NCBI GenBank assembly: GCA_041661865.1
Contig: JBAZTO010000004.1
Span: 614 to 64,613 of the forward strand
Direction of reading: 5' to 3'
Source: Phycisphaerae bacterium
GTDB taxonomy: Bacteria; Planctomycetota; Phycisphaerae; SM23-33
Length of the DNA stretch: 64,000 nt
Shown piece by piece: positions 9,741 through 64,000 of this stretch; the first letter of the stretch is position 1, and the number at the start of each line of letters is the position of its first letter. A program made the position numbers and the translations under genes. The notes under the pieces were generated by a model, which worked only from the letters and a program-made list of their open reading frames with translations, had not been told where the DNA came from and made no database searches.

Positions 9741-9790
9741 CAATGACGAATGACGAAGTGCGAATGACGAATCAATGACGAAACGTCACG
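9741..9790. repeat. GAATGACGAA-family repeat arm (forward orientation) directly after lexA stop
   Basis: caatgacgaatgacgaagtgcgaatgacgaatcaatgacgaaacg; inverted partner at 11368-11420; complete IR copies at 30786-30909 and 34249-34380. Confidence 0.7.
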
Positions 9791-11169: not shown

Positions 11170-11420
11170 CCGTTTGCGGAAGGGCATGTTGATCGTGATG
11201 CCGTGGGCGGGTGCCGTGGTCGCGGCGTTTGCGACCACGAGCAGAAACGACGATACCCGCTCGCTTCGCGCTCGCGGCTAGTGCGCCAAGGCGCGGGCCT
11301 TGGTGCCTGCCTGCCGGTAGGCAGGTTGCGCGCCCTACATTCCGCTTAGTTCGTCCCCGCTGTCTTGGTCATTTGTGCTTCGTCATTGATTTGTCATTCG
11401 AGTTTCGTCATTCGTCATTC
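11170..11420. repeat. mosaic cluster of REP-like modules (BIME-like)
   Basis: Contains GGGTGCCGTGGTCGCGGCGTTTGCGACCACG (11210-11240, identical 31-mer at 56963), right half of CTAGCCGCGAGCGC element (11265-11295), CTGCCKGTAGGCAGGTTGCRCGCCCT module (11315-11345, also at 36519-36547) and inverted GAATGACGAA arm (11368-11420). Confidence 0.7.
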
Positions 11421-15085: not shown

Positions 15086-15128
15086 GGTGGCACAGGCGCC
15101 TCGGGTAGCACAGGCGTCTCGCCTGTGC
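15086..15128. repeat. CACAGGCG-nGA-CGCCTGTG palindromic REP (two adjacent copies) upstream of prfB
   Basis: ggtggcacaggcgcctcgg + gtagcacaggcgtctcgcctgtgc; same palindrome at 19131-19156, 62947-62972 and in the 63018-63158 tandem. Confidence 0.6.
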
Positions 15129-15209: not shown

Positions 15210-16335
15210 ATGCCACAAGAGCTTAATCTCAAGGATACCATCGAAGCCCTTCGCACCCGGATTCACGCCATCCGGGACTCTCTTTGACGTCCCTGCACGC
15301 CAGCAGAAAATCTCCGAACTTGAGCTGAAGATGGCCGTCCCGGGCTTCTGGAACAACAACGAAGCCGCCCAGCCGATCATCGGCGAGCTCAAGGCCCTCA
15401 AGGCCATCGTCGTTCCCATGGGCGAGCTGATCCGGCGGATCGACGACCTGGAGGCTCTCCACGGCCTGGCCGTCGAGGAAAACAGCGACGAGACGATCGC
15501 CGAGGCCGCCGCCGAGGCTGAGAGCATCCGCGCCGACGTGGAGCAACTGGAACTCCGCACGCTGCTGTCGGGGACTCACGACGCGGGCAACGCCTATTTC
15601 TCCATCCATGCCGGGGCCGGCGGCACCGAGAGCTGCGACTGGGCCCAGATGCTCCTGCGGATGTACGTGCGCTACTTTGAACGCGCCGGCTACAACGTCG
15701 AGGAAATCGACCGCCTCGACGGCGAGGAGGCCGGCATCCGCTCGGTGTCGCTGCGGGTCCGCGGGCCCTACGCCTACGGCTATCTCGCCTGCGAGCGCGG
15801 CGTGCACCGCCTGGTGCGGATCAGCCCGTATGATTCGCAAAGCCGCCGGCATACCAGCTTCGCCTCCGTCGACGTGCTGCCGGAGCTGGAGGAAGTGGAG
15901 ATCGACATCGACTTCGCCAAGGACGTTCGCGAGGATGTCTTCCGTGCCAGCGGCGCCGGCGGCCAGCACGTCAACAAGACCTCCTCCGCCGTCCGGCTGA
16001 CGCACCTTCCCACCGGCATGGTTGTCCAGTGCCAGAACGAGCGCAGCCAGCACAAGAACCGCGCCGAGTGCCACAAGCTCCTGGCGGCCAAGCTCTACCA
16101 GCTCGAACAGTCCAAGCGCGACGCCGAACTGGCCAAGATGTACGGCAACAAGGGCGAGATCGCCTTCGGCTACCAGATCCGCTCCTACGTGCTGTATCCC
16201 TACCAGTTGGTTCGCGACGAACGCACCGAACTCAAGAGTTCCCACACCGACAACGTGCTCGACGGCGAAATCCAGCCGTTCATCGATTCCTACCTGCGCT
16301 TCCGCGCAGCCCAGGAACGCGCGGCGAAGACCTAA
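15210..16335 (+). CDS. prfB: peptide chain release factor 2, translated via programmed +1 frameshift (join 15210..15284,15286..16335)
   Basis: ORF0 MPQELNLKDTIEALRTRIHAIRDSL ends at in-frame TGA within CTT TGA C; +1 frame continues DVPARQQKISELELKMAVPGFWNN...; SPF and GGQ motifs present; SD AGGAGA before ATG 15210. Confidence 0.93.
15279..15288 (+). other. prfB: prfB programmed +1 ribosomal frameshift site (CTT TGA C)
   Basis: tct CTT TGA Cgt; UGA at 15285-15287, shift onto GAC 15286-15288. Confidence 0.9.
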
Positions 16336-19085: not shown

Positions 19086-19156
19086 TAGGGCGTGCTTACC
19101 AGCACGCGGAATGCGGTTGTGCCAGGACAGCCACAGGCGGGACGCCTGTGGTACCC
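19086..19156. repeat. two REP palindromes (GCGTGC-TTACCA-GCACGC variant and CCACAGGCG-GGA-CGCCTGTGG)
   Basis: tagggcgtgcttaccagcacgcggaat ... ccacaggcgggacgcctgtggtaccc between convergent permease and NRDE genes. Confidence 0.6.
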
Positions 19157-19932: not shown

Positions 19933-19952
19933 CGCCGCTCTCCAAACAGAAT

Positions 19953-20065
19953 CACCAAGACCACAGAGAGCACAAAGATCACAAAGCACGCCAAATCAGG
20001 AACAGAAAGGCTGAGGTTCGTGCGGTTGCCTTTCTTTGAGGTCTTTGTGGCCTTCGTGGTTGTTC
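19953..20065. repeat. 9-bp-periodic inverted-repeat element (CACRRAGNN)x4 / spacer / (NNCTYYGTG)x3
   Basis: caccaagac cacagagag cacaaagat cacaaagca ... gtctttgtggccttcgtggttg; spacer contains AAAGGC/GCCTTT hairpin; lies in divergent NRDE/trpB promoter region. Confidence 0.65.
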
Positions 20066-21605: not shown

Positions 21606-21711
21606 TTGAACAACAGTGCGAAGTGCGTGGTGCGTAGTGCGAAGAACAACAACAGTGCGAAGTGCGTGGTGCGAAGAACAGCGGCGCCGCGCCAAGACGA
21701 ACTAGCCGCGA

Positions 21712-23937: not shown

Positions 23938-24099
23938 AAAGCACGGAGAACACGGAGACCGCAGAGAGCACGGAGCAAACCATCGTCGAGAAAAAGAAAC
24001 ACCCCGCGAAAGGCGGGGTGCTGGATTGCTCTTTGGGTCTTGTTCAGACTCTTGGACTGTTCTCTGTGGCCTTTGTGTTCTCTGTGATCTTTGTGATGG
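23938..24099. repeat. 9-bp-periodic inverted-repeat element flanking the rpoD terminator
   Basis: cacggagaa cacggagac cgcagagag cacggagca [spacer with terminator] ctgttctctgtggcctttgtgttctctgtgatctttgtgatgg. Confidence 0.65.
23986..24020 (-). terminator. rho-independent terminator of rpoD
   Basis: hairpin CACCCCGC-GAAAG-GCGGGGTG followed on minus strand by TTTCTTTTTCTC. Confidence 0.6.
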
Positions 24100-27715: not shown

Positions 27716-27935
27716 ATCACAGAGGGCACGGAGATCACAAAGATCACGGAGAATGGCAAACAGGGAAAGCACGAAGCCAAGGTACGACGAATCGTGCAAA
27801 GGTCAGGAACCGGACACTGCAAAGCCACCAGGCTCGTTGTTCTTTTTTCTGGTTTTTTCTGGCTTTCCGATAGGCACTATTCTCTCTTCAGCTTCTCTTT
27901 GTGATCTCTGTGTCCTTCGTGAGCTTTGTGATAGC
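27716..27935. repeat. 9-bp-periodic inverted-repeat element between dnaG start and rnhA end
   Basis: cacagaggg cacggagat cacaaagat cacggagaa [130-bp spacer with T-rich run] ctctttgtgatctctgtgtccttcgtgagctttgtgatagc. Confidence 0.65.
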
Positions 27936-30785: not shown

Positions 30786-30909
30786 ACAATGACGAATGAC
30801 GAAATGCAAATGACGAATCAATACTCGAATGCTCGAATATCCCAAACAGAATCCCGTGGACCCTGTTGGGTTATTCGTCATTGACTCGTCATTCGAGTTT
30901 CGTCATTTG
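30786..30909. repeat. complete about 125-bp inverted-repeat element of the GAATGACGAA family between gfo and mnmE
   Basis: acaatgacgaatgacgaaatgcaaatgacgaatcaatactcgaatgctcgaatat [central cccaaacagaatcccgtggaccctgttggg] ttattcgtcattgactcgtcattcgagtttcgtcatttg. Confidence 0.7.
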
Positions 30910-33354: not shown

Positions 33355-34289
33355 GCGCGCCCGCGCGTAACGGCTGGCTGCCCGCCTGGCCGGGGCATCT
33401 GCGGCGGGCTGGCGTGCTGGGCATGAACGCCCGCAACACCCAACTGCTCGTGGCGCTGAACCCCAGGCGGCTCTACGACCTGGTCAACGACAAGATCCAG
33501 ACCAAGGAACTGTGCCTCCGCGAGGCGATCCCCACGCCGCGAACCTACGCGATCCTCGACCACCCCGCGCAGGTGCCCGCGGCGGCGGAGATCATGCGGC
33601 AGGCCGGCCAGTTCGTGGTCAAGCCCTCGCGCGGCAGCGGGGGCCGCGGTGTGCTGGTCATCGCCGGCAGCGAAGAGGGCGACTTCCGCACCTCCAGCGG
33701 CGTCGCGATGAGCTGGGACGAGATGCGGTACCACCTGCTGATGACGCTGGCCGGCGCGTTCTCCATCGGCGGCCGGGCCGACCGCGTGATCATCGAGCAG
33801 CGCGTCAGCCGCCACGCCGCCTTTGAAGGCCTGGCCGTCAACGGCACGCCGGATGTGCGACTGATCGTCTATCGTGGCAGCGCCATCATGGGCATGCTTC
33901 GCCTGCCGACGCTGGCCTCGGGCGGCCGGGCCAACCTCCACCAGGGCGCGCTGGGGCTGGGCCTGGACATCGCCACGGGCGTGTCCACCGGCGGCTTCTG
34001 CCGCGACCGCAGCGTGGAAGTTCATCCCGACACCGGGGCGGCCCTGACCGGCGTGGCTGTGCCGCGATGGAAGGAAATGCTGGCCGTGTCGGAGAAACTG
34101 TCAGCCGCGGTGGGCCTGGGCTACCTGGGCGTGGACATCGTGCTGGGCGAGGAGGGCCCGCTGGTCCTGGAGGCCAACGGCCGGCCGGGACTGTCCATCC
34201 AGATCGCCAACCGCTGCGGATTGATGACGCGGATCGCCGAAGCCGAGAATCGAATGACGAATGACGAAACTCGAATGATAAATCAATGA
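33351..34289 (+). CDS. ATP-grasp alpha-L-glutamate ligase-like protein (RimK-related)
   Basis: ATP-grasp motifs VVKPSRGSGGRGV, LGYLGVDIVL, LEANGRPG; GTG start overlapping upstream stop; last 13 codons ([13 protein letters not shown]) are encoded by the GAATGACGAA repeat arm. Confidence 0.8.
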   Translation: MSAPARNGWLPAWPGHLRRAGVLGMNARNTQLLVALNPRRLYDLVNDKIQTKELCLREAIPTPRTYAILDHPAQVPAAAEIMRQAGQFVVKPSRGSGGRGVLVIAGSEEGDFRTSSGVAMSWDEMRYHLLMTLAGAFSIGGRADRVIIEQRVSRHAAFEGLAVNGTPDVRLIVYRGSAIMGMLRLPTLASGGRANLHQGALGLGLDIATGVSTGGFCRDRSVEVHPDTGAALTGVAVPRWKEMLAVSEKLSAAVGLGYLGVDIVLGEEGPLVLEANGRPGLSIQIANRCGLMTRIAEAENRMTNDETRMINQ

Positions 34290-34380
34290 CGAATAACCCC
34301 ATACGTTTCGCGTGTTTCTGTTTGGGGCATTCGAGCATTCGAGTATTGATTCGTCATTCGAGTTTCGTCATTCGTCATTA
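34249..34380. repeat. complete inverted-repeat element of the GAATGACGAA family overlapping the 3' end of the ATP-grasp gene
   Basis: atcgaatgacgaatgacgaaactcgaatgataaatcaatgacgaataacc ... cattcgagcattcgagtattgattcgtcattcgagtttcgtcattcgtcatta. Confidence 0.7.
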
Positions 34381-34400: not shown

Positions 34401-35252
34401 ATGCACATTCTGGCCACCATCGTTCCCGCCGAGATCAACAACGTCTACGTCTTCCTGATCCTGGGCAGCCTGTCGGCCATGCTGGTGGCCGTCGCCAAGG
34501 CCGGCTTTGGCGGCAGCATCGGCATGCTGGCCTACCCGGTGATGTTGTACGCCTTCGGCGGCGACGCGTTCCTGGCCGCCGGCACGCAGTTGCCGCTGCT
34601 GATCGCCAGCGACATCCCAGCCCTGGTGCGGTGGTGGCGCAAGTGGAACGGCCACGCCGTGCGAATGCTGCTGCCCGGGGCGCTGGCCGGCATCGGCCTG
34701 GCGTGGTGGGCGCTGTGGATGCTCATCGGCGATGGCCGCACCGCCGAGCAGGTCAAGGTCGCCAAGGCCCAGGCCAACGGCGTGCTCCTGCTGCTGGTGG
34801 GCGTGATCGCGCTGGCCTTCGTCAGCCTGCAGGTGATCCGCTACCTTCGCCGGCGGGCGCTGGCCTTTCGCCCGGTCCCCTGGCAGGGCGCGGTCGCCGG
34901 CGGCCTGACGGGCGTCTGCTCCATGCTGGCCAATGCCGGCGGGCCCATTACCACCATGTTCCTGCTGCCCCAGGAAATGCCCAAGGGCATGTATGTGGCC
35001 ACCACCGTCCTGCTCTACGCCGTCATCAACGAGGTCAAGATCGCGCCCTTCTGGCATCTGGGGATGATGACGCCGCACACGCTGTGGGCCGGACTGCTCC
35101 TGCTGCCCGCGGCGGTGGCCGGCACGTTCCTGGGCCTCTACCTCCACGACCGCGTCGGCCAGAAACAATTCAACGGCATCGCCTACTCGCTGCTGTTCCT
35201 GGCCGGCATCGACATGGTGCACAAGGGCGTCAGGATCCTTTGGTTCTCATAG
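34401..35252 (+). CDS. TSUP (TauE/SafE) family anion exporter
   Basis: 283-aa, 7-8 TM, duplicated 4-TM halves with GGxxG/PLL motifs typical of TauE/SafE. Confidence 0.85.
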   Translation: MHILATIVPAEINNVYVFLILGSLSAMLVAVAKAGFGGSIGMLAYPVMLYAFGGDAFLAAGTQLPLLIASDIPALVRWWRKWNGHAVRMLLPGALAGIGLAWWALWMLIGDGRTAEQVKVAKAQANGVLLLLVGVIALAFVSLQVIRYLRRRALAFRPVPWQGAVAGGLTGVCSMLANAGGPITTMFLLPQEMPKGMYVATTVLLYAVINEVKIAPFWHLGMMTPHTLWAGLLLLPAAVAGTFLGLYLHDRVGQKQFNGIAYSLLFLAGIDMVHKGVRILWFS

Positions 35253-35313
35253 TGCGAAAGTGCGAAGCGGCAGGTCGTAGCGAAGTAGGGCGTGCAACTT
35301 GTTGCACGCAGGA
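35253..35313. repeat. composite REP: GTGCGAAAGTGCGAAG module + GTAGGGCGTGCAACTTGTTGCACGC palindrome
   Basis: immediately after TSUP stop; inverted counterparts at 36487-36575 on the other side of the methyltransferase gene. Confidence 0.6.
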
Positions 35314-36426: not shown

Positions 36427-36575
36427 AAGGCGTGCAACGAGTCTGCCACGGCGGCCAGGGTTCTGCACGCGGAAGAAACAATTCCCCGCGTGCAACGAGT
36501 TGCACGCCCTACTACCAACTGCCTGTAGGCAGGTTGCACGCCCTGCCAATTTCGCACTTCGCACTTTCGCACTGC
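36427..36575. repeat. cluster of REP modules inverted relative to 35253-35313
   Basis: aaggcgtgcaac[insert]gcacgcggaag; cgcgtgcaacgagttgcacgccctac; ctgcctgtaggcaggttgcacgccctgcc; aatttcgcacttcgcactttcgcactgc. Confidence 0.6.
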
Positions 36576-58482: not shown

Positions 58483-58567
58483 TGCCCGGGACAGGAGTTG
58501 AACCTGCATGGGACAAAGTCCCACCAGCCCCTCAAGCTGGCGCGTCTGCCAATTCCGCCACCCGGGC
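58483..58567 (-). tRNA. tRNA-Leu (anticodon GAG)
   Basis: 85-nt cloverleaf: acceptor GCCCGGG/CCCGGGC, D-arm GCGGAATTGGCAGACGC, anticodon stem CCAGC/GCTGG with loop TTGAGGG, long variable arm GGGAC-TTT-GTCCC, T-loop TTCAACT, discriminator A; close to E. coli tRNA-Leu D-arm. Confidence 0.85.
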
Positions 58568-61011: not shown

Positions 61012-61599
61012 TCACTTCTCGCCGGACTCCTGGGCCGTTTCCCCGGCCTCATCGGGCAGCTTGGAAACCACCACCGCTGCCGGGCGGATGGTCCGGCCCT
61101 TGAGTTGGAAGCCCCGCTGAAGCTCGGTCAGCACCGTGTTGGGCGGGCACTTGTCCGACGGCTGCTGCATCAGGGCCGAGTGTTTCTCCGGGTCGAAATG
61201 CTCGCCCTCAGCCTTGATGACGCTCAGGCCGTAGCGGCCGAGGATCTCGAAGGCCTTGTTGTAGACCAGTTCCATGCCCACCAGCAGCGGATCGTCGGCG
61301 GCGTGGTTGACCATCGCGGCCTTGAGGCCCCGGTCCATGTCGTCCAGCACGACCAGGAAACTCTTGATCAGGTCGGCGTTGGCGTATTCGCGGGCCTCGG
61401 TGATGTCCCGCTGGACGCGCTTCTGGTAGTTCATGAACTCCGCCGAGACGCGTTGGAGGCGCGCTAGCAGGTCGTCCCGCTCGGCCTGGAGTTTGTCCAG
61501 ATCGCCGGCCGGTTCCCGCGGCGCGGCGGCTGCGGGCTGGTCGGGGCTGGGTTGAGAGGCCGGCTCAGCCGAATCGTCCTGTTTGTGTTTCTTGTTCAT
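61012..61599 (-). CDS. grpE: nucleotide exchange factor GrpE
   Basis: coiled-coil N-terminus, FMNYQKR... GrpE signature. Confidence 0.92.
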   Translation of the reverse strand: MNKKHKQDDSAEPASQPSPDQPAAAAPREPAGDLDKLQAERDDLLARLQRVSAEFMNYQKRVQRDITEAREYANADLIKSFLVVLDDMDRGLKAAMVNHAADDPLLVGMELVYNKAFEILGRYGLSVIKAEGEHFDPEKHSALMQQPSDKCPPNTVLTELQRGFQLKGRTIRPAAVVVSKLPDEAGETAQESGEK

Positions 61600-61632: not shown

Positions 61633-62775
61633 CTAGGGCTTGTCAGGGGCGAAATAATCTTTCAGCTTGTCCAGGAAGCCCTTCCGCTGCGGCGTCACGT
61701 GGGCCTCTTCGGTCTTGGCGTAGGCGTCGAGCAGCTCGCGCTGCTTGCCGGTGAGCTTTTTGGGCACCTCGATGAGCACCTGCACGTGCTGGTCGCCGAC
61801 CCTGCCGCTTCGGCCGATGGAGGGCAGCCCGCGCTTCTTGAGCATGTACACGTCGCCATGCTGCGTGCCGGGGGCGATGTCGATCTCTTCGGGCTGGTGG
61901 CCCAGCGTGGGCACGGCGATCCGTCCGCCCAGTGCCGCCTGGGAAAAACTGATGGGCACCTGGCAGTACAAATCGTCGTCCTGGCGGACCAGCAGCGGGT
62001 GGGGCTTGAGGCGGATATAGCAGTGCATGTCGCCGCGGCTGGTGCCGTTGGCGCTGGGCTCGCCCTCGCCGCGAACGCGAATGACCTGGCCTTCCTGCAC
62101 GCCGGGAGGCACGTGGACGCTGAGGATGCGCTTCTTGCGCTTGCGGCCGCTGCCGCGGCAATCGGTGCAGGGGTCGCTCACCAGCGTGCCCTTGCCCTTG
62201 CACTTGGGACAGGGAACGATCCGCACCGACATGCCGAAAAAGCCCTGCATCTGCTGCTGCATCTGGCCGTAGCCGCCGCAGTTGGCGCATCGCTGGGGCG
62301 ACGTCCCAGGCCGGGCGCCCTTGCCCGAGCAGGTCTCGCAGAAGTCCATCCGCTCAAACTCCAGCGTCTGGTCGACCCCGGTGGCCACCTGTTCGAGGGT
62401 CAGGACGACCTCGGTCTCCAGGTCGTAGCCGCGGTCCATGGCGGATCGCGCGCCGCCCCCGCCGAAGCCTCCGCCCAGGATGTCCTGGAACATCGAGAAA
62501 ATGTCCCCGAAACCCATGCTGGAGAAATCGTGCACGCCCGCGCCGCGCAGCCCCTCGTGGCCGAAGCGGTCGTACTGCTCCCGCTTGCCCGGGTCGGACA
62601 AGACTTCGTAGGCCTCGGCCAGCTCCTTGAACTTGGACTCGGCTTCGCTCTTGTCGCCCTTGCAGTTGTCAGGGTGGAACTTCAGCGCGCCGCGGCGGTA
62701 GGCCCGCTTGATCTCGTCGGCGCCGGCCGAGCGCTCCAGCCCCAACACTTCGTAATAGTCACGCTTCTGAGACAT
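61633..62775 (-). CDS. dnaJ: molecular chaperone DnaJ
   Basis: J-domain with HPD, G/F region, four CxxCxGxG zinc repeats. Confidence 0.95.
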
Positions 62776-62946
62776 TACCTGGTTATCGACTTCCGGTTTC
62801 TTGATTTTTCGATTTCAGCCGCCGCGGGTGCCCAGATCAAACCAGCCGTGAGCGCAAAGCGAGCGGAAATCCTGGCGACACTTTCCGGCCTCGCGAGCAA
62901 AACAGTCTACAACGTCGCCCGGCGGTTTGCACTCTCATTGCGTTCT

Positions 62947-62972
62947 GGTAGCACAGGCGTCCCGCCTGTGCT
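62947..62972. repeat. inverted single copy of the CACAGGCG palindromic unit
   Basis: ggtagcacaggcgtcccgcctgtgct. Confidence 0.6.
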
Positions 62973-63017
62973 CTGGAACCCTATCGGCGATTGTTTGTAG
63001 TCTTACGGCCTTACACC

Positions 63018-63158
63018 CACAGGCGAGACGCCTGTGCTACCACACTCACAGGCGAGACGCCTGTGCTACCACACTCACAGGCGAGACGCCTGTGCTACCA
63101 CACTCACAGGCGAGACGCCTGTGCTACCACACTCACAGGCGAGACGCCTGTGCTACCC
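63018..63158. repeat. tandem array of five 29-bp units CACAGGCGAGACGCCTGTGCTACCACACT (no spacers)
   Basis: exact 29-nt period at 63018, 63047, 63076, 63105, 63134 (last unit truncated); each unit contains the CACAGGCG-AGA-CGCCTGTG palindrome. Confidence 0.8.
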
Positions 63159-63224
63159 ATGACGTTTCAGGGGCGCCGCGGCCTTGGCCACAGCGCCCCT
63201 GAGTTTCTTCGCTAATTGCTGTTC

Positions 63225-63296: not shown

Positions 63297-64000
63297 TTAA
63301 TGCACTGCGGCGGCGTTCTGCACGTCGGCCTTTTCGTCGTACTCGGCCACCATCAGGTCGGTCGTCAGCATCATGGAGGCCACCGACGCGGCGTTCTGCA
63401 AGGCCGTGCGGGAAACCTTCGCCGGGTCGATGATGCCCGCGGCGATCATGTCCACGTACTCGCCGGTGGCGGCGTTGTAGCCGATGTTGTTGCCGCGTTC
63501 GAGGATCTCGGCCACGATCACGTCGCCGTCCTCGCCGGTGTTGGCGACGATCTGCTCGGTGGGGGCCGTCAGGGCCCGGGCCACGATGTCCACGCCGATC
63601 TTCTCGTCGCCCTTGGCCTTGTCACGGGACTTCTTGACCGCCGCGATGGCGTGCAGCATCACCACGCCGCCGCCGGGGACGATGCCTTCCTGGCTGGCAG
63701 CGCGGGTCGCATGCACCGCGTCGTCGATGAGGTCCTTGCGTTCCTTCATCTCCGCCTCGGTGGCAGCGCCGGCATAGATCACCGCCACGCCGCCGGTCAA
63801 CTTGGCCAGGCGCTCGTTGAGCTTTTCCTTGTCATAGTCGCTGGTGGTCTTGGCGATCTGGCCGCGAAGGGTCTCGCAACGGGCCTGGATTTCCTTCTTC
63901 GTGCCCGCGCCCTCGATGAGGGTGGTGGTTTCCTTGTCCACGACCACTCGCTTGGCCGTGCCGAGCATGTTCAGTTCCACGCTCTCGAGCTTGAGGCCCA
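63297..64000 (-). CDS. groEL: chaperonin GroEL, C-terminal part (5' end beyond window)
   Basis: ORF open to window end; GroEL apical/equatorial motifs (GGGVAVIYAGAATE, VEEGIVPGGGV, IIDPAKVSRTALQNAAS). Confidence 0.93.
   Translation of the reverse strand, partial: GLKLESVELNMLGTAKRVVVDKETTTLIEGAGTKKEIQARCETLRGQIAKTTSDYDKEKLNERLAKLTGGVAVIYAGAATEAEMKERKDLIDDAVHATRAASQEGIVPGGGVVMLHAIAAVKKSRDKAKGDEKIGVDIVARALTAPTEQIVANTGEDGDVIVAEILERGNNIGYNAATGEYVDMIAAGIIDPAKVSRTALQNAASVASMMLTTDLMVAEYDEKADVQNAAAVH

Follow-up and report, generated by a model that had tools for sequence, protein, structure and literature searches.

The repeat cluster between groEL and dnaJ in a 64-kb stretch of DNA from a Phycisphaerae bacterium (the whole of this stretch is called the window below) is very probably a cluster of GTAG-tagged REP elements, in which an outward-facing pair was inserted between the terminator of groEL and a promoter-like box of dnaJ, and one of the two partners was later amplified. 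Repeats of this kind are already known in bacteria, and as such the cluster is fairly ordinary. What is mildly surprising concerns the family and not the locus, namely that exactly the same REP is common to several phyla and that pure head-to-tail arrays of it recur.

The features of the cluster and of its surroundings are listed in Table 1. A single array call was obtained with TRF over 63013-63157 (period 29, 5.0 copies, 99% matches, score 283) and direct reading of the sequence agrees with it, so the 29-nt period repeated five times in the first-pass annotation of this DNA is borne out, with correct coordinates and unit. The units are identical except for the first one of the plus strand, which has ACACC where the rest have ACACT; read on the minus strand, the linker AGTGTG is replaced by GGTGTA after the last unit, the one nearest dnaJ. 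The single copy at 62948-62970 is inverted with respect to the array and forms with it a pair with the GTAG ends facing outwards ("HH"), its 25-nt arm being 96% complementary to each of the array units. An open reading frame of 91 aa that runs across the cluster (62927-63202, plus strand) is most reasonably regarded as spurious, and a protein-coding reading of it was discarded, as it has no Pfam match and is made up of repeat units.

Table 1. Positions in the 64-kb window of the REP cluster, its flanking features, the other REP copies and two further repeat families.
Feature	Position	Strand	Remarks
grpE	61012-61599		after dnaJ
dnaJ	61633..62775	-	downstream of cluster
Box GTTGTAGACTG	62903..62913	-	upstream of dnaJ
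Single REP GTAGCACAGGCGTCCCGCCTGTG	62948..62970	+	inverted relative to the array
Spacer, single REP to first array unit	62971..63017	.	47 nt
Head-to-tail array, five 29-bp units	63013..63157	-	each unit: 23-nt REP GTAGCACAGGCGTCTCGCCTGTG plus 6-nt linker AGTGTG
REP cores of the array	63134-63156, 63105-63127, 63076-63098, 63047-63069, 63018-63040	-	
GC-rich hairpin TCAGGGGCGC...GCGCCCCTGA	63167..63202	-	outside the REPs; downstream of groEL
groEL, 3' part	63297..64000	-	upstream of cluster; runs past the end of the window
Single REP GTAGCACAGGCGTCTCGCCTGTG	15105..15127	+	between DUF6677 gene (-) and prfB (+)
Single REP, variant GTAC head, GTACCACAGGCGTCCCGCCTGTG	19132..19154	-	between convergent permease gene (+) and TANGO2-family gene (-)
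Second repeat family	347-418, 9742-9782, 11368-11420, 21615-21676		
Second repeat family, further sites	30788-30907, 34251-34379, 35251-35266, 36550-36573		
Third repeat family	19951-19986, 23942-24095, 27716-27752, 27897-27931		

Each unit had been described as containing a palindrome, and a hairpin core is indeed present, but it belongs to an oriented sequence of 23 nt and not to a simple palindrome. This element consists of GTAG, an 8-bp stem CACAGGCG, a 3-nt loop TCY and the returning strand CGCCTGTG. When all copies are read on one strand they follow the pattern GGTAG-CACAGGCG-TCY-CGCCTGTG, and the orientation is set by the unpaired 5' GTAG and by the pyrimidine loop (GGTAGCACAGGCG-TCY-CGCCTGTG). 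The stem can be extended to 10 bp and the loop is either TCT or TCC. Folded as DNA, each unit is predicted to form a hairpin of 8-10 bp that leaves GGTAG single-stranded, with z-scores from -4.3 to -6.1. The core CACAGGCG-N3-CGCCTGTG is found eight times in the window, whereas 0.06 occurrences are expected from 100 dinucleotide shuffles, none of which reached eight. Apart from the five array units, these cores are at 15109-15127, 19132-19150 and 62952-62970, confirming all the additional copies that had been indicated near 15.1 and 19.1 kb and, inverted, at 62947-62972. The window thus holds four separate intergenic REP sites that adjoin unrelated genes, and the head of the element is GTAG in seven copies, GTAC in one and GTGG in a partial copy.

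The REP at 15.1 kb is preceded by an 18-bp partial duplicate of itself (GGTGGCACAGGCGCCTCG, 15086-15103). The whole stretch 15086-15127 can be read as an 18-bp tandem duplication inside a REP, in the order GGTGGCACAGGCGCCTCG / GGTAGCACAGGCGTCTCG / CCTGTGC, and deletion of either 18-mer regains a perfect REP. On a small scale, it exemplifies slippage-type duplication in this REP family.

These traits were compared with those of the GTAG-tagged REPs (Di Nocera, De Gregorio and Rocco 2013, PMC3733652), a superfamily defined, in the sections of that article used here, by a short GC-rich hairpin that carries a GTAG at its 5' end. The likeness extends to the unpaired terminal GTAG with tolerance of GTGG and GTAC, to a GC-rich stem of 6-9 bp (up to 13 in the family range) and to a loop of 2-3 nt; high copy number and extragenic position are traits of that system. 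According to the same sections, such REPs have been reported in Proteobacteria, in Planctomycetes and Verrucomicrobia (PVC), in Cyanobacteria and in Chloroflexi, and they form head-to-head, tail-to-tail and head-to-tail dimers, as well as clusters reiterated in tandem. Head-to-tail dimers are described there as rare in most families, so the configuration found in the window is the less usual one. The element presumably corresponds to one of the numbered GTAG families, compared here by their description in the text. Particularly close are the PVC families, such as GTAG-19 of Opitutus terrae, whose intragenic copies encode the peptide GTGVPPV, against STGVPPV here, in the same frame and one residue apart. 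In those same sections of the text there is no description of the stem CACAGGCG, of an exact 23-mer in at least eight phylum-level groups or of pure head-to-tail arrays of up to 13 units. A literature search with the REP sequence itself returned only unrelated primer matches.

The genes on both sides are dnaJ and groEL, as had been claimed. Four Phycisphaerae relatives (L183-L186), with DnaJ proteins 72-77% identical, share the synteny groES-groEL-dnaJ-grpE-Zn-ribbon, and no REP was found in their groEL-dnaJ spacers or anywhere else in each locus of about 6 kb. The spacer measures 93-304 nt in these relatives against 521 nt in the window, where it would be reduced to 310 nt by removing the cluster. 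Three of the four (L183, L184 and L186) keep a GC-rich hairpin after groEL and a TGTAGACT-like box before dnaJ, the boxes found being TGTAGACT, GGTAGACT and GGTAGAGT; neither feature is evident in L185. As the same type of hairpin is present in three of four relatives, the one at 63167-63202 is likely the groEL terminator, and the box at 62903-62913 may act as a promoter -10 element. Since the relatives share the synteny but have no REP at this place, the cluster is a lineage-specific insertion between a conserved terminator-like hairpin and a conserved promoter-like box, and does not belong to the ancestral regulation of these chaperone genes.

The distribution of the REP in other genomes was analyzed by a scan for GTAGCACAGGCG-N3-CGCCTGTG with one genome per species, which returned at least 118 stretches, so that the unit is clearly not confined to this genome, nor is it confined to one phylum. 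The exact 23-mer was found in at least eight phylum-level groups: Planctomycetota (at least 66 stretches), Verrucomicrobiota (at least 16, plus at least two in Kiritimatiellia), Cyanobacteriota (at least 16), Acidobacteriota and Desulfobacterota (at least five each) and Chloroflexota (at least three), the others being single cases among the matches listed. Isolates are also among the matches listed (Oscillatoria PCC 10802, Calothrix NIES-4105 and Cerasicoccus frondis), and in other genomes there are several loci per genome. Of 132 copies, 123 have a loop that fits the pattern NCY and just two are symmetric, which supports a strand-specific element. Many copies of the family have an inverted partner 2-60 nt away, and such doublets are common in other genomes; neighbour pairs among 228 elements were oriented with GTAG outwards in 43 cases, inwards in nine and head to tail in 19. 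The genes next to the at least 118 loci belong to unrelated housekeeping families. A cargo or constant neighbour gene was also considered and discarded, as clustering of the ORFs at the 118 listed loci brought up nothing beyond abundant families (DUF1501, PSCyt/PSD, kinases, ClpP and ECF sigma factors, among others). In addition, the exact 23-nt REP is present on twelve contigs classified as viral (IMG/VR, L171-L182), in some cases in two copies; the number is small, and host DNA included in prophage calls is a likely explanation, with prophage borders or real phage copies as alternatives.

It had also been proposed that the array, between dnaJ and groEL, could be a set of binding sites for a dimeric protein. 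The consensus of CIRCE, the operator of HrcA, is TTAGCACTC-N9-GAGTGCTAA, and the full-length palindrome contains TAGCAC-N13-GTGCTA, which corresponds to the spacing of the CIRCE half-sites. An inverted repeat near chaperone genes could then be an array of duplex operators for a heat-shock regulator, HrcA or another, of dnaJ-grpE or groEL. However, no match to CIRCE was found in the window with up to three mismatches, and on one side of each array unit TAGCAC is replaced by ACTCAC, which leaves a single half-site. The other copies in the window adjoin prfB, the DUF6677 gene, the permease gene and the TANGO2-family gene, and unrelated families surround the REP at the at least 118 other loci, so it is not specific to chaperone genes. 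The four syntenic relatives, three of which retain terminator and promoter-like box, lack the element in the same spacer. Finally, the asymmetry given by the GTAG head and the NCY loop would be unexpected in a symmetric duplex operator. A chaperone-gene operator is therefore unsupported, and we consider this explanation very improbable.

A different role, which would be compatible with a REP origin, would be that of a co-opted RNA element: if transcribed from groEL or into dnaJ, the several hairpins of the array, and the long duplex that it can form with the inverted copy, would act as a terminator or insulator or through 3'-end stability or RNase processing, and set the level of groEL with respect to dnaJ-grpE. 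The whole region folds with -165.6 kcal/mol (z = -10.6 against shuffled sequences) and the units lie in sense orientation between two co-directional genes. Crude ORF calls placed the end of a same-strand ORF at most about 20 nt upstream of around one third of the other arrays, and several arrays stop just before a Shine-Dalgarno sequence and an ATG; moreover, terminator and mRNA-stabilizing roles are ascribed to REPs in the sections used of PMC3733652. Against this, in the direction of transcription a conserved terminator-like hairpin comes before the array, which may thus escape groEL transcription, and a conserved promoter-like box comes after it, so that it may be outside the dnaJ transcript; this position disfavours a role at transcript level. 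The relatives, besides, manage without the cluster. Nor does it belong to a known RNA family: with Rfam gathering thresholds the window gave only a tRNA located elsewhere, and a permissive scan added sub-threshold matches to miRNA precursors, which come from the long hairpin. Such co-option is thus unlikely. Given the very strong folding, a secondary structural effect (a back-up terminator, an insulator or a cruciform) would be possible.

The statement that this is not a CRISPR, as there are no spacers, was found correct. With a short palindromic repeat recurring every 29 bp, the array superficially resembles a degenerate or orphan CRISPR, but the 23-nt hairpins are separated by identical linkers of 6 nt instead of unique spacers of 25-40 nt, the unit is also dispersed as single copies, and the genes flanked by the REP encode RAYT proteins and not Cas proteins. 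We give this reading practically no credit.

The connection with RAYT transposases was analyzed with an HMM built from a published RAYT alignment (supplement of PMC3733652), which gave three matches among the listed REP loci, in such a manner that a RAYT or a remnant of one was found at only three of the at least 118 loci (L093, L069 and L024). A regular-expression search had found none, because the HUH context of these proteins is HVHS. With the HMM, no RAYT gene was detected in the 64-kb window, and the genome of this Phycisphaerae bacterium would presumably encode one. At L093, from an Akkermansiaceae genome, the gene codes for a 214-aa Y1_Tnp protein (36 bits in Pfam, against a cutoff of 23), and is flanked by the identical 23-mer, upstream at around 50 nt, and by a compensatory variant in inverted orientation, CACAGCCG, downstream at around 30 nt, which is a classic REPtron. 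At L069 (Schlesneria), a head-to-tail pair of REPs is accompanied by an inverted one (CTCAGGCG), and the group stops 13 nt short of the ATG of the RAYT gene, and at L024 (Acidobacteriota) a RAYT remnant lies beside an exact REP copy. Five further RAYT homologues were inspected together with their flanks, and all five are bordered by REPs. One of them, L122, is 52% identical and has on both sides REPs of the family found in the window (CACGGGCG/CACAGGCG), with some mismatches in the stem; the other four have flanking REPs of identical GTAG-8-3-8 geometry and genome-specific stems. The REP that flanks the transposase gene in L093, L122 and L069 is accordingly either the same as that of the window or a variant differing in one pair.

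The proteins of this clade have about 210 aa, with RNLPHW...FVTFRL as a motif near the N-terminus and invariant HUH and Tyr motifs. The clade comprises 5,225 homologues, many of which are called RayT by JGI. It scores 72.6 bits with the NCBIfam model REP_Tyr_transpos, just below the curated cutoff of 80, and 21 bits with the IS200 model, and its best PDB match is the E. coli TnpA_REP 4ER8, only at E = 3e-5. These comparisons suggest a RAYT-like clade. Two observations on its members can be added. In Oceaniferula marina (JACBAZ010000002.1; L123, 1184-2409) the RAYT gene lies inside a BIME-like lattice of alternating GTAG-GACAGGTT and GTAG-GACAGCTT REPs, with regular steps of 78 and 46 bp on both sides, a well-preserved REPtron in a cultured verrucomicrobium. 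In addition, several homologues of around 365 aa (P0008, P0020, P0048, P0053, P0076 and P0117) are annotated as fusions with, or read-throughs into, a D-Tyr-tRNA deacylase (PF02580), which suggests a recurrent dtd-RAYT neighbourhood or gene fusion.

The REPs of E. coli with their BIMEs and the transposase TnpA_REP (RayT), as well as REPtrons (Nunvar 2010; Ton-Hoang 2012, PMC3333891; Messing 2012; Corneloup 2021, PMC8266576), resemble the present system in the 5' GTAG followed by a hairpin, which in those systems is recognized as ssDNA by a Y1 HUH enzyme, in having the transposase gene between inverted REPs and in their regularly spaced clusters; models of local tandem amplification have been put forward for them. 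They differ in that the E. coli palindromes ("group 2") are longer, imperfect and bulged, whereas those described here are short and perfect, like "group 3", and in that BIMEs alternate in orientation, whereas the cluster is uniformly head to tail with one inverted partner. The expansion of a REP or BIME proposed initially is therefore supported as regards the REP, through the GTAG and short perfect hairpin, the dispersed copies, the doublets and the RAYT genes flanked elsewhere, but the alternation of a BIME is absent: given that all five units point the same way and the sixth copy alone is inverted, the cluster is termed BIME-like here and is not counted among the BIMEs. REPINs (Bertels and Rainey 2011, PMC3116915) are likewise formed by two inverted REPs with a short spacer and are presumed to be the mobile unit; the corresponding gap here is 47 nt, but one of the arms is present five times. 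REPIN-RAYT systems have also been described as vertically inherited and lineage-specific, whereas the exact REP of the window appears in several phyla.

In order to see if such arrays recur, contigs from metagenomes were scanned for two exact REPs separated by 1-14 nt, and 43 contigs were obtained. Their arrays have from two to 13 units, and each has its own constant period (24-40 bp) and linker. Loop variants alternate within them in patterns that suggest duplication of blocks of several units. The longest have 13, 12 and 7 units (L132, 1622-1968; L170, 7538-7887; and L143, 1322-1512), with loop variants (TCC/TCT or GCT/GCC) alternating in higher-order patterns, and those of L170 and L143 end directly upstream of the Shine-Dalgarno sequence and ATG of a co-directional gene. 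A period of 29 bp as a mechanistic constant seemed plausible after L045 and L126, and was ruled out by the 24-40 bp of the 43 arrays; as the period is specific for each array, the 29 bp of the window have no special meaning. The arrays are tandem amplifications of a REP together with its local linker. Both slippage or unequal exchange and an amplification primed by TnpA_REP (PMC3333891) fit the array data.

The count of five units rests on one metagenome assembly, as the source is a MAG (Phycisphaerae bacterium, 107-kb contig). A second, independent assembly of the same population (L119, Logan SRR18595301) agrees with the window at 100% identity across dnaJ and the sequence upstream of it, until it breaks within the array after 1.2 units; it starts with the linker of a preceding unit (GAGTGT) followed by a full unit, hence an independent sample also contains a minimum of two units in tandem. 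The junction between tandem units is thus real, and the exact number of five is uncertain, both for the origin of the sequence in a MAG and for this break. An assembly artefact, in which a short-read assembler entered a repeat cycle and the true units are one or two, or many more, would be favoured by that origin, by an array length of 145 bp, close to typical read and k-mer lengths, by the break of the Logan assembly within the array, and by the lack of any match to the unique flank of the array among the metagenome contigs scanned. All the contigs with identical DnaJ or GrpE (L119-L121) break in the array or stop short of it, in practice a warning that this locus is prone to break assemblies. 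The two tandem units of L119 speak against an artefact, as do comparable arrays of 2-13 units on the 43 other contigs, some of them of 0.1-0.6 Mb, and the change of AGTGTG to GGTGTA after the unit nearest dnaJ, which fits a true array edge. We regard an artefactual array as quite unlikely.

Taking the REP cluster as such, its origin may be envisaged by analogy with known systems. The elements would be non-autonomous REPs, recognized strand-specifically as folded ssDNA through the GTAG and the hairpin, and the recognizing protein would be a single-copy Y1 HUH transposase (RAYT or TnpA_REP) that cleaves and rejoins them. For E. coli, Stenotrophomonas (S. maltophilia) and Marinomonas, binding and cleavage of the folded single-stranded REP by the enzyme has been demonstrated in vitro (PMC8266576). 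In the lineage of this bacterium, an outward REP pair would have been inserted between the groEL terminator hairpin and the promoter-like box of dnaJ, and one partner, together with its 6-nt linker, would then have been amplified head to tail to around five copies, possibly through slippage during replication, through unequal exchange of neighbouring copies, or through the local amplification primed by TnpA_REP that was proposed by Ton-Hoang et al. (PMC3333891). The cluster is most likely a selfish or neutral element, and might have some effect on groEL or dnaJ transcripts. For annotation, it should be entered as a repeat region and not as a CRISPR, an operator or a gene, though at this locus the matter has little importance.

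A bolder reading, which we hold only tentatively and judge rather doubtful, is that one REP, identical over 20 specified bases, and the RAYT clade that co-occurs with it have spread between phyla (Planctomycetota, Verrucomicrobiota, Cyanobacteriota, Acidobacteriota, Chloroflexota and Desulfobacterota), and that the arrays were left behind by local rolling amplification primed by RAYT rather than by slippage. If true, a spread of this kind would contradict a strictly vertical, lineage-specific inheritance of REPIN-RAYT systems, and the spacer-less arrays would be a natural in vivo record of TnpA_REP activity. In any case, a cross-phylum REP, a large and poorly studied RAYT clade and recurrent arrays provide material for testing horizontal against vertical inheritance of REP-RAYT systems, and the same material serves to test the amplification mechanisms proposed in vivo.

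Some other features of the window were recorded. The second intergenic repeat family of Table 1 consists of degenerate heptamer runs, AATGACG and AGTGCGA, with the inverted partners TTCGTCATT and TCGCACT; pairs of runs flank genes or build long imperfect inverted repeats, and AATGACG occurs 11 times on the plus strand and nine on the minus strand of the 64 kb. In the third family, 9-mer runs (CACGGAGAN and ATCACAAAG) are paired with inverted runs (CTTTGTGAT and TTCTCTGTG), and those at 23942-24095 bracket a terminator-like GC hairpin. The prfB gene, for release factor 2 (15210-16335, plus strand), has a canonical programmed +1 frameshift site, CTT TGA C, around 15282-15288; its ORF0 reads MPQELNLKDTIEALRTRIHAIRDSL*, and the NCBI product has 374 aa, against 334 aa for the plain ORF. 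The only match at gathering score with Rfam in the window (50.9 bits) is a tRNA gene on the minus strand (58483-58567), located within, or antisense to, long mechanical ORFs.
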